This document shows positions 3,832 through 6,124 of a DNA stretch of 64,000 nucleotides, in pieces; positions within the stretch are counted from its first letter, which is position 1, and each line of letters starts with the position of its first letter. The position numbers were made by a program, and so were the translations under genes. The notes under the pieces were generated by a model, which saw nothing but the letters and a program-made list of their open reading frames with translations, was not told where the DNA came from and did no database searches. Where the stretch lies: contig CAWEPZ010000011.1 in the NCBI GenBank assembly GCA_963811105.1, forward strand, positions 1,152,001-1,216,000, written 5' to 3'. Source of the stretch: Candidatus Bathyarchaeota archaeon (GTDB lineage: Archaea > Thermoproteota > Bathyarchaeia > Bathyarchaeales > Bathycorpusculaceae).

Positions 3832-3959
3832 GTTTATCAAACTTTTTCGTCGAGTTATTGTTTTATGTTTTTTTCCTTTCGCTGTTTAGTTTTTTTAAGC
3901 GATGGTTTTTCGGTACCTATACAAAGCCAAGAAAAAGATGCACTTGAGCCACAATGTTA

Positions 3960-4181
3960 CTATTTTCCCATGACTTTTCTAACAGCGATTTCAATATCTT
4001 CCGTCTTAATGGTCTTTCTTCCTGCATATTTAGCATAATCGAGTGCTTCTTTAGCAATCTTCATGCCAATCTCCTCAAGAACTTTTGCAAGTTCCTTCGC
4101 TGCTGCTTCACTTACCCTGTCTGCGCCAGCTTTCTCGCACAGTCGACGCATTGGAGCTAAAGCTATTTCTAATTCTTTCAT
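3960..4181 (-). CDS. Archaeal histone (HMf family)
   Basis: LAPMRRLCEKAGADRVSEAA...AGRKTIKTEDI histone fold. Confidence 0.93.
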   Translation of the reverse strand: MKELEIALAPMRRLCEKAGADRVSEAAAKELAKVLEEIGMKIAKEALDYAKYAGRKTIKTEDIEIAVRKVMGK

Positions 4182-4309
4182 ATAGACTTTCTCCACTGTC
4201 TCTTCTTATTTTTAAGGCAGTATTAAGCTTTGTTATCTTTTTCAGCCATTTTCTTTAGCAAATTATAAATACAAATTCCTGTAATACATTAATTCCCGAG
4301 GTTGTTTTA

Positions 4310-4366
4310 ATGGCAAAGAAACCAGTTAAAAAAGAAGTAAAGAAAGCCCCGGCAAAGAAAAAGTAA
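4310..4366 (+). CDS. Unannotated 18-aa lysine-rich peptide MAKKPVKKEVKKAPAKKK
   Basis: TATA-like TTATAAAT at ~4263, GAGGT SD at 4298, ATG 4310, TAA 4366, T-rich terminator-like tract at ~4388-4408. Confidence 0.65.
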   Translation: MAKKPVKKEVKKAPAKKK

Positions 4367-4535
4367 AACCTCGGCATAACCTACACTTATTTCTCTTTTT
4401 TCTTTTCTAAAGAATAGAACTAAAAAGAACAAAATAAATGGAGTTGGCGCCAGCTAAATCTTAGTGAGATGATTACTTTGAAAAAGTTAAGTTTATATCA
4501 AGTTCTAATGCAGAATAATGAGTGAAGTGAAGTTT

Positions 4536-4901
4536 ATGCATAAACGTATGAATCCTCGAGAGCAAAAACGCATGATGCAACGTATGGGCATGAACATGGA
4601 CTCCGTCCCAGACGTTCAACAAGTCATTATTAGAACAAGCGGCAAAGACATTGTAATCGATGAGCCTGAAGTGGCAATTCTTGAAGTGCAGGGACAAAAA
4701 ATGTACCAAGTTATTGGCGGTCAGGTATCAGAGCAAGCGCCTTCTCAACGCCAAACAGCAAATGCGGCACAGCCAGTATTCTCAGAAGAAGACGTGAGGC
4801 TGGTGGCGGACCAAACAGGTAAAAGCTTGGAGAAAGCAAAGGAAGCTCTTGAGGACTGCCAAGGCGATTTGGCGAAAGCCATACTGCTTCTTCAATCTTA
4901 G
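4536..4901 (+). CDS. nac: Nascent polypeptide-associated complex protein
   Basis: MNPREQKRMMQRMGM N-terminus, NAC domain and UBA-like C-terminus (EEDVRLVADQTG...GDLAKAIL). Confidence 0.93.
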   Translation: MHKRMNPREQKRMMQRMGMNMDSVPDVQQVIIRTSGKDIVIDEPEVAILEVQGQKMYQVIGGQVSEQAPSQRQTANAAQPVFSEEDVRLVADQTGKSLEKAKEALEDCQGDLAKAILLLQS

Positions 4902-5914: not shown

Positions 5915-6124
5915 ATGGGACGCATAGACAAAGGACAAAAATGCAGTGTTTCGGGCTGCGGCAGAGAAGCTGTACGTTCATTATCTTCTGATAAAGTCAA
6001 GGCTGCTGGTCTAAATGTTAGCAGCGGCGAAAAACGCGCTTATATTTGCAAAGAACACTACAAAGAATACAAGAAGAAAACCAAGAAAGATAAAACCATT
6101 GATAAGTGGCGTTACGGTCACTGA
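5915..6124 (+). CDS. Small basic Zn-finger protein upstream of thrS
   Basis: CSVSGC...YICKEHY (C3H ligands); GAGG SD; closely spaced with thrS. Confidence 0.7.
   Translation: MGRIDKGQKCSVSGCGREAVRSLSSDKVKAAGLNVSSGEKRAYICKEHYKEYKKKTKKDKTIDKWRYGH

Follow-up and report, generated by a model that had tools for sequence, protein, structure and literature searches.

A conserved lysine-rich micro-gene paired with a divergent histone paralogue in one genus of Bathyarchaeia

Results

In the 64,000-nucleotide stretch of a Candidatus Bathyarchaeota genome analysed here (the window), an open reading frame of 18 codons on the plus strand (4310..4366; ATG at 4310, codons to 4363, TAA at 4364-4366) lies between a histone gene of 73 amino acids on the minus strand (3960..4181; PF00808, E 6.5e-13) and a NAC gene (4518-4901; PF01849 match). 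Its product, MAKKPVKKEVKKAPAKKK, contains nine Lys and one Glu, has a net charge of about +8 and carries a KK pair every four residues. Upstream on the same strand is a BRE-like AGCAAA followed by the TATA box TTATAAATA (4257..4271), a block in which most positions are invariant across 39 units and which recurs as TTAGCAAATTTTAAATA among aligned units from other genera; we assign it as the putative promoter from its match to the archaeal BRE/TATA consensus. The motif CCCGAGG (4295..4301, +) provides a GAGG Shine-Dalgarno sequence 8 nt before the ATG, and its CCGAGG portion forms the 5' arm of an inverted repeat whose complementary 3' arm, CCTCGG (4369..4374, +), begins 2 nt past the stop codon. 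Further downstream lies the T-rich tract TTTCTCTTTTTTCTTTTCT (4390..4408, +), which is probably a transcription terminator, oligo-T termination being well established in archaea; a run of at least five T follows the ORF in 40/40 histone-type units and in 33 of 35 others. On the minus strand, the block GTATTAAGCTTTGTTATCTTTTT (4220..4243) is kept in the histone-adjacent loci of the alignment and, as judged from its position, is probably the TATA-like promoter of the histone, back-to-back with that of the micro-gene. These features agree with an earlier note on this DNA, which had described a complete unannotated unit within 4260-4410 (TATA-like box, Shine-Dalgarno sequence, ATG, 18 codons, TAA and T-tract) divergent from the histone across about 130 bp; the two start codons are 128 nt apart. 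The usual size cut-off of gene callers is about 30 codons, and the micro-gene goes unreported because it falls below this limit, so that what the note had suspected of being missed by annotation is a complete, conserved gene that annotation in its usual form cannot pick up.

Other analyses of the window unit returned little. The best match in Rfam 15 was snoZ152 (18.9 bits versus a gathering score of 50; E 1.6), so a described RNA family was set aside, and the single-sequence fold of the unit was no better than that of shuffled sequences (z 0.26). A bacterial-type promoter and terminator scan, which is not designed for archaea, found nothing relevant in the window. Contigs from one run labelled metatranscriptomic, but probably derived from DNA, covered 3900-4187 (the histone, in relatives' sequence) and nothing over the micro-gene, which speaks neither for nor against its expression. 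Elsewhere in the window, an ORF of 69 amino acids (5915-6124, +) with CxxC and C..H motifs, a Lys-rich C-terminal part and no Pfam match may encode a small zinc-binding protein.

A genome-wide scan for short Lys-rich ORFs (12-31 codons, Lys content of 40% or more) preceded by a Shine-Dalgarno sequence gave two in the real genome, one of them the window ORF, and two in the reversed genome, and the purine-rich core of the micro-gene is stop-free in every frame. The openness of the ORF is therefore not significant, and its significance rests on conservation instead. A 161-nt query (window 4250-4410) searched against 101 genomes of the genus matched 56 at E<=0.01 and 38 at E<1e-20, most of the matches spanning the whole query, with 76-99% identity. 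An exact pattern for the 3' end of the ORF occurred at 40 loci in the species collection, 34 in MAGs titled Bathyarchaeota or Bathyarchaeia and six in bacteria, the latter presumably by chance. Starting from 90 loci, we obtained 70 matches and, from these, 40 distinct units, in all of which the ORF is intact, with 18 codons in 32 units, 17 in six and 19 in two, so that every length difference amounts to whole codons. Start codons vary between ATG (18 units) and GTG (22 units) at a fixed distance from GAGG, and the TAA stop is invariant in the 39 aligned units.

The substitution pattern was analysed in 27 distinct 57-nt ORFs. Minimum changes at the first, second and third codon positions numbered 5/7/19 overall and 0/0/4 within the nine Lys codons, the third position of codon 2 is four-fold saturated (GCA6/GCC6/GCG7/GCT6), and all four CCN codons are in use at codon 14; such a pattern is that of a translated gene and not of an RNA element. 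Pairwise codon differences comprised 1082 synonymous versus 752 non-synonymous. As the non-Lys residues Pro5 and Ala13-Pro14 are also retained through synonymous change, selection appears to act on the peptide itself. By these measures of sequence evolution the micro-ORF is a protein-coding gene under purifying selection, and the earlier note's expectation of a conserved short ORF with synonymous variation was borne out within the genus. A chance ORF in an A-rich spacer, which the equal counts in the real and reversed genomes would allow, is refuted by the conservation across the genus, the intact frames and the codon-position pattern, and we give it practically no weight. In the same 27 ORFs, the second Lys codon of the KK pairs (codons 4, 8, 12 and 17) is AAA throughout, while AAA and AAG alternate at the first (codons 3, 7 and 11).

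The earlier note had named frame-breaking indels among close homologues as evidence against the gene; there are none in the 40 distinct units, but two relatives carry them. The second unit of the window's own genome (contig C13:66073-66224 (-), L138), of the type found beside dihydroorotate dehydrogenase (DHODH) genes, has a one-base deletion in an A-run that gives VAKAPKKEEKNGKRRNKLF in place of the ...KKKK end, converting the C-terminal KKK to RRNKLF; this may be genuine or may be an error made in assembling the homopolymer. In L116, two bases are deleted and the stop comes earlier. Although both changes shift the frame near the 3' end, both ORFs still encode basic peptides.

The TATA block is conserved, and the untranslated flanks (CCCGAGG, CCTCGG and ACATTTACYTCTCT ahead of the T-run) are as conserved as the ORF; RNA-level constraints therefore exist besides the coding ones. 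This conservation, together with the A/G-rich sequence open in every frame and the frame-shifting indels of the two relatives, is what speaks for a small non-coding RNA or cis element in which the ORF would be incidental to purine-rich sequence. Such an element would not be expected to change mainly at third codon positions, to vary its Lys codons at the third position only, to saturate two four-fold sites, to confine its indels to whole codons in 40 units or to exchange ATG for GTG at a fixed distance from GAGG, and the Rfam and folding results given above lend it nothing; we consider it improbable. CCGAGG and CCTCGG are paired in 132/132 cells across 22 sequences, with two one-sided changes that both leave G-U pairs and no compensatory changes. 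Pairing is compatible with these data and might, as one possibility, enclose the ORF within the folded mRNA and so hide the Shine-Dalgarno sequence. Separately, the 12 nt ahead of the first run of at least five T contain CCTC in 12/40 histone-type and 11/33 other units (the region at 4380-4408 in the window), with a background of 17/525 long ORFs in the same genome; the motif is complementary to the GAGG Shine-Dalgarno sequence, and CCTC is also present in the terminator of the housekeeping histone (L203). One clade has about 290 nt of conserved non-coding sequence inserted between the histone and micro-gene promoters (L089:1416-1776, and the corresponding position in L086, L065 and L048); the insert contains no conserved ORF, and the L089 copy has no Rfam match.

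A histone gene lies directly upstream of the micro-gene in 34 of the 40 units, 31 times divergent and three times co-directional. Four of the six remaining units have less than 300 nt of upstream sequence, leaving 34/36 assessable loci with the histone; the other two, L026 and L057, have no histone within 1.4-3.9 kb upstream. Beyond the pair, the neighbours change: the left flanks fall into 24 tblastx groups among 32 and the right flanks into 32 groups among 39. As the outer flanks differ in most loci, the histone/micro-gene junction has outlived many rearrangements of both neighbours, which upholds the co-inheritance of the micro-gene with a tail-less histone. One named MAG contains three such pairs (L058, L062 and L067). 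The histone-NAC spacer, which the note had proposed to search across Bathyarchaeia, is not a conserved setting: NAC is common to only 2/39 right flanks and lies within the fetched sequence in 3/40 loci. It comes close behind the unit only in the window and in a relative 99% identical to it, with one more locus having it 1.8 kb away. Persistence of the pair could have another ground, since closeness alone, with two promoters fitted into 128 nt, could preserve it without shared function.

The linked histones differ from the other histones of the genus. We compared 34 linked histones with those of 20 genus histone loci without a unit and with six histones from other families; the unit models gave no hit on the 20 unlinked loci apart from one weak match in L203, which was rejected as the histone's own 3' end and terminator. 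Mean pairwise identity is 0.785 among linked versus 0.964 among the 20 unlinked histones. In a maximum-likelihood tree, 31 of the 34 linked histones form one clade (UFboot/SH-aLRT 95/88), and a separate one holds the unlinked and other-family histones and three linked ones (L090, L081 and L060). The window histone aligns to HMfB (1a7w; E 6.9e-18, offset 3) with Tyr52 at the position of His49, which is His in 20 and Tyr in 14 linked histones, His in 20/20 unlinked and His in 6/6 other-family histones. The G51 position is R or K in 15/34 linked histones and G in 20/20 unlinked ones, while G16, RKT, D59 and the residue at position 62 are retained in the linked group. Henneman et al. 2018 (PMC6136690) assign L46, H49, D59 and L62 to the HMfB dimer-dimer interface and describe H49 substitutions as probably weakening it. 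Judged against PF00808 and these residues, the window copy keeps the archaeal histone fold and matches the interface only in part, because its H49 counterpart is Tyr. The "tail-less, atypical histone" of the earlier note is therefore atypical in its clade and not in its fold, which is ordinary: from alignment and phylogeny, the window histone is a member of a fast-evolving paralogue clade and not the housekeeping copy. The latter hardly varies across the genus, and no micro-gene unit lies near it.

None of the 20 histone loci inspected for a covalently attached tail of similar Lys-rich composition had one. Eight of these are other-family loci lacking a Lys-rich ORF or extension, and 12 are histones of the class with long open frames upstream, again without a Lys-rich tail; these frames were rejected as tails, since the start codon is at the fold and the open frame ahead of it is read-through that does not code. 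Thus, no fusion joins peptide and histone in the loci inspected. With the micro-ORF a separate gene on the opposite strand, we ruled out a covalent histone tail as an explanation for the peptide itself.

To describe related units beyond the genus we used two models, R1, built from 39 units, and R2, built from 24 diverse units. At E<=0.01, R1 matched 50/151 genomes of the order, 26 of the 35 in the same family among them, and R2 matched 55/151 genomes of the class, in 39/79 genera, at E<=0.001; as the model is A/G-rich, low-scoring matches are candidates only. We define the Bathyarchaeia family of Lys-rich stand-alone micro-genes by a BRE/TATA element of their own, a Shine-Dalgarno sequence 6-9 nt before ATG, GTG or TTG, an ORF of 13-26 codons of which 40% or more are for Lys, and a T-rich tract no further than about 60 nt past the stop. 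The window unit has all of these, and its scores are 134 bits (R1) and 78.9 bits (R2). In 35 of the 48 fetched sequences (one place being included twice), an SD-like motif precedes a start codon and a Lys-rich ORF of 13-26 codons, usually with a T5+ run after it; the encoded peptides include VAKAAKGKKKKGGKKK, VAKAAKKETKKAKKKK, MAKKKSGKKGKKGKKK and MAKKKAAKKTTKKKTTKKKK. Copy number ranges from zero to four or more matches per genome, with many genomes having none.

Linkage to a histone is not shared by this wider family: no histone was found within the fetched 3 kb in any of 28 non-histone-type loci. In ten loci from other genera of the family (L102-L106, L109, L111, L113, L115 and L116) the gene that the unit precedes is a tandem ferritin-like one, and in four loci of the present genus (L108, L112, L114 and L118) a second subfamily lies upstream of DHODH. 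Histones were found in 187/201 class genomes and sit elsewhere in the genome than these micro-genes. As related micro-genes in other genera are not beside histones, the linkage is a genus-level and not a family property and, on the gene orders compared, a derived trait confined to a single subfamily of this genus.

The ferritin-type and DHODH-type units are co-directional with the gene that follows about 100-150 nt downstream, an arrangement that might suit a regulatory mini-cistron, in which translation and not its product would matter, for example by sensing Lys-tRNA, aIF5A or polyamine status or by tuning read-through or transcription of a neighbour. AAA or AAG making up half of the codons, the pairing that would mask the Shine-Dalgarno sequence, and the back-to-back promoters shared with the histone would all fit. 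This reading is nonetheless opposed by the unit's own T-rich terminator, by the separate TATA boxes of the downstream ferritin and DHODH genes, by the diversity of genes downstream of the histone-type unit (the 32 groups among 39 loci noted above), by the lack of lysine-pathway genes among the neighbours and by the synonymous retention of Pro5 and Ala13-Pro14, which points to selection on the peptide, and we think it unlikely. A leader peptide or attenuator in the strict sense, which would lie in the leader of a controlled operon related to its over-represented amino acid, with no independent terminator followed by a separate promoter, was rejected on the same terminator, neighbour and promoter evidence.

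Several observations were made on other Lys-rich micro-ORFs. Some family members (L123, L128, L141, L152, L157, L142, L154 and others) have a Cys beside the Lys run; it occupies the N-terminal end in VSCKKK, MPACKSKKK and MSCGCRSKKK and the extreme C-terminus in …KKKC and …KKKKKAC. A 15-codon ORF from another class of the phylum encodes an identical peptide, MKKEKKEEKKEEKKK, in 4/4 genomes (L173:1555-1602, L175:1499-1546, L180:1561-1608 (-) and L187:1549-1596); its seven variable sites are all third codon positions, and 43-48 nt downstream of it is a gene, probably for ribosomal protein L14e, whose Pfam match falls below the cut-off. Further classes contain MAAKKKAKKKAKKKK-like and MSCTEKKEEKKEEKKKKKK-like ORFs, and similar micro-genes may therefore occur in other classes of the phylum.

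Discussion

Several known systems resemble the peptide in part. Like histone tails, whether the eukaryotic core and H1 C-terminal tails or the N-terminal tails of Heimdallarchaeota and Bathyarchaeota B23, the peptide is short, disordered and composed of Lys with the small residues A, P and V. Such N-terminal Lys-rich tails are described in PMC6136690 and PMC10919886 for some Heimdallarchaeota histones and for one Bathyarchaeota (B23) histone, and according to PMC6136690 the tailed archaeal histones mostly carry interface changes too, as does the histone beside the micro-gene. Unlike these tails, the peptide has a gene to itself, on the strand opposite the histone and with a putative promoter, Shine-Dalgarno sequence and terminator of its own, and it has relatives without a histone neighbour; the likeness is one of composition over 18 residues. 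A 2024 review from the Warnecke group argues that Lys-rich sequence arises easily from AT-rich spacers (PMC10919886). The linked histones likewise resemble paralogues predicted, by criteria given in PMC6136690, to alter hypernucleosome growth, in that they evolve fast and have H49 changed to Tyr in 14/34 and G51 to R or K in 15/34, but they keep G16, D59 and position 62. Searches of openly available full-text articles turned up no description of such a micro-gene, nor of a dedicated micropeptide partner of archaeal histone paralogues.

Two further comparisons with eukaryotic chromatin proteins were rejected. Linker histones H1/H5 consist of a winged-helix globular domain flanked by Lys-rich tails, and 18 residues cannot hold such a domain, leaving tail-like composition as the only common feature. 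SPKK-type minor-groove motifs are (S/T)-P-K/R-K/R turns, and the peptide has neither Ser nor Thr and reads AKKP, VKKE, VKKA and PAKKK. Protamines and the adenovirus core peptide mu are small polycationic DNA-condensing peptides. The H1-like K/A/P repeat tail at the C-terminus of the bacterial nucleoid protein HupB, mentioned in PMC10919886, is comparable to them, and all three share with our peptide a very high density of positive charge, low complexity, no fold of their own and, by analogy, presumed charge neutralisation of DNA. The peptide differs in being Lys-based and not Arg-based, archaeal, a putative DNA binder and a primary 18-codon translation product instead of a processed fragment or domain.

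The tiny basic ribosomal proteins eL41 (PF05162) and bacterial Thx share with the peptide a length of less than 30 residues, a strongly basic character and a tendency to escape gene callers. By this comparison the peptide might instead serve RNA or the ribosome, as a basic ribosome-associated or RNA-chaperoning factor, with the histone a matter of inherited synteny only. Size, charge, a consensus-like promoter and a strong Shine-Dalgarno sequence would all fit, as would the wider family without histone linkage and the Lys/Glu-rich micro-ORF upstream of a probable L14e gene in another class. The 25-position Arg/Lys-rich PF05162 profile has no match in the genome, but as it has none in any of 14 control genomes either, this speaks neither for nor against the idea. 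There is, however, no visible sequence likeness to eL41 or Thx. As a rule, ribosomal proteins are found almost everywhere, in a single copy of conserved sequence, while the peptide drifts in sequence, varies in copy number and is patchily distributed, and the variant-histone pair survives many rearrangements. A role of this kind seems unlikely to us, yet it ranks first among the rivals, ahead of the regulatory mini-cistron, which in turn precedes the non-coding RNA.

Our preferred reading, which we put forward tentatively and at somewhat less than an even chance, is that the micro-gene encodes a translated polycationic micropeptide that binds nucleic acid and that, in this genus of soil Bathyarchaeia, is coupled to a variant histone. 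From the gene structure, conservation, coding-type substitution, linkage to a distinct histone clade and spread of the family, we infer transcription, in vivo translation and a stable peptide that would bind DNA and affect chromatin. The strong BRE/TATA promoter would give high expression of an RNA of roughly 100 nt, and the GAGG Shine-Dalgarno sequence would drive its translation into an intrinsically disordered polycation of 18 residues. This peptide would most likely act by charge on polyanions, above all DNA, and DNA binding would be its most economical function. The gene appears fixed in the genus back-to-back with a fast-evolving histone paralogue whose dimer-dimer interface is often changed, and this fixation suggests that the peptide probably works with the variant histone, its most likely partner here. 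As a putative tail in trans, it would supply the lysine-rich segment that tail-less archaeal histones go without and might modulate compaction or bridging of DNA by the variant histone-DNA complex. The chromatin compaction, DNA binding, co-regulation and likeness to H1 and H2B tails proposed in the earlier note are likewise readings of composition and gene order. Against the preferred reading, family members outside this subfamily, with a histone neighbour in 0/28 loci, argue against an obligate histone partnership, other-family histones have no such ORF nearby, only 38/101 genus genomes have a histone-type unit, and an unprotected 18-mer may be short-lived in cells.

A more far-reaching version, which is attractive but which we consider doubtful, would make the pair a two-gene chromatin module in which a histone with a remodelled interface is served by a dedicated tail in trans that docks on or threads between the DNA gyres and sets compaction or bridging. 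Histone tails and linker histones would then have in such a peptide a free-standing precursor or analogue, and Lys-rich micro-genes would constitute an unannotated class of abundant polycationic nucleoid components in Bathyarchaeia and perhaps in further Thermoproteota.

Most archaeal histones have no tail, and how lysine-rich tails and linker histones came about is still to be explained. A Lys-rich peptide that is conserved, encoded on its own and co-inherited with a divergent histone paralogue could be put directly to the test. The micro-gene also belongs to a conserved family of genes of 13-26 codons, systematically overlooked by gene callers and absent from protein databases, in a class of globally abundant and mostly uncultured archaea.
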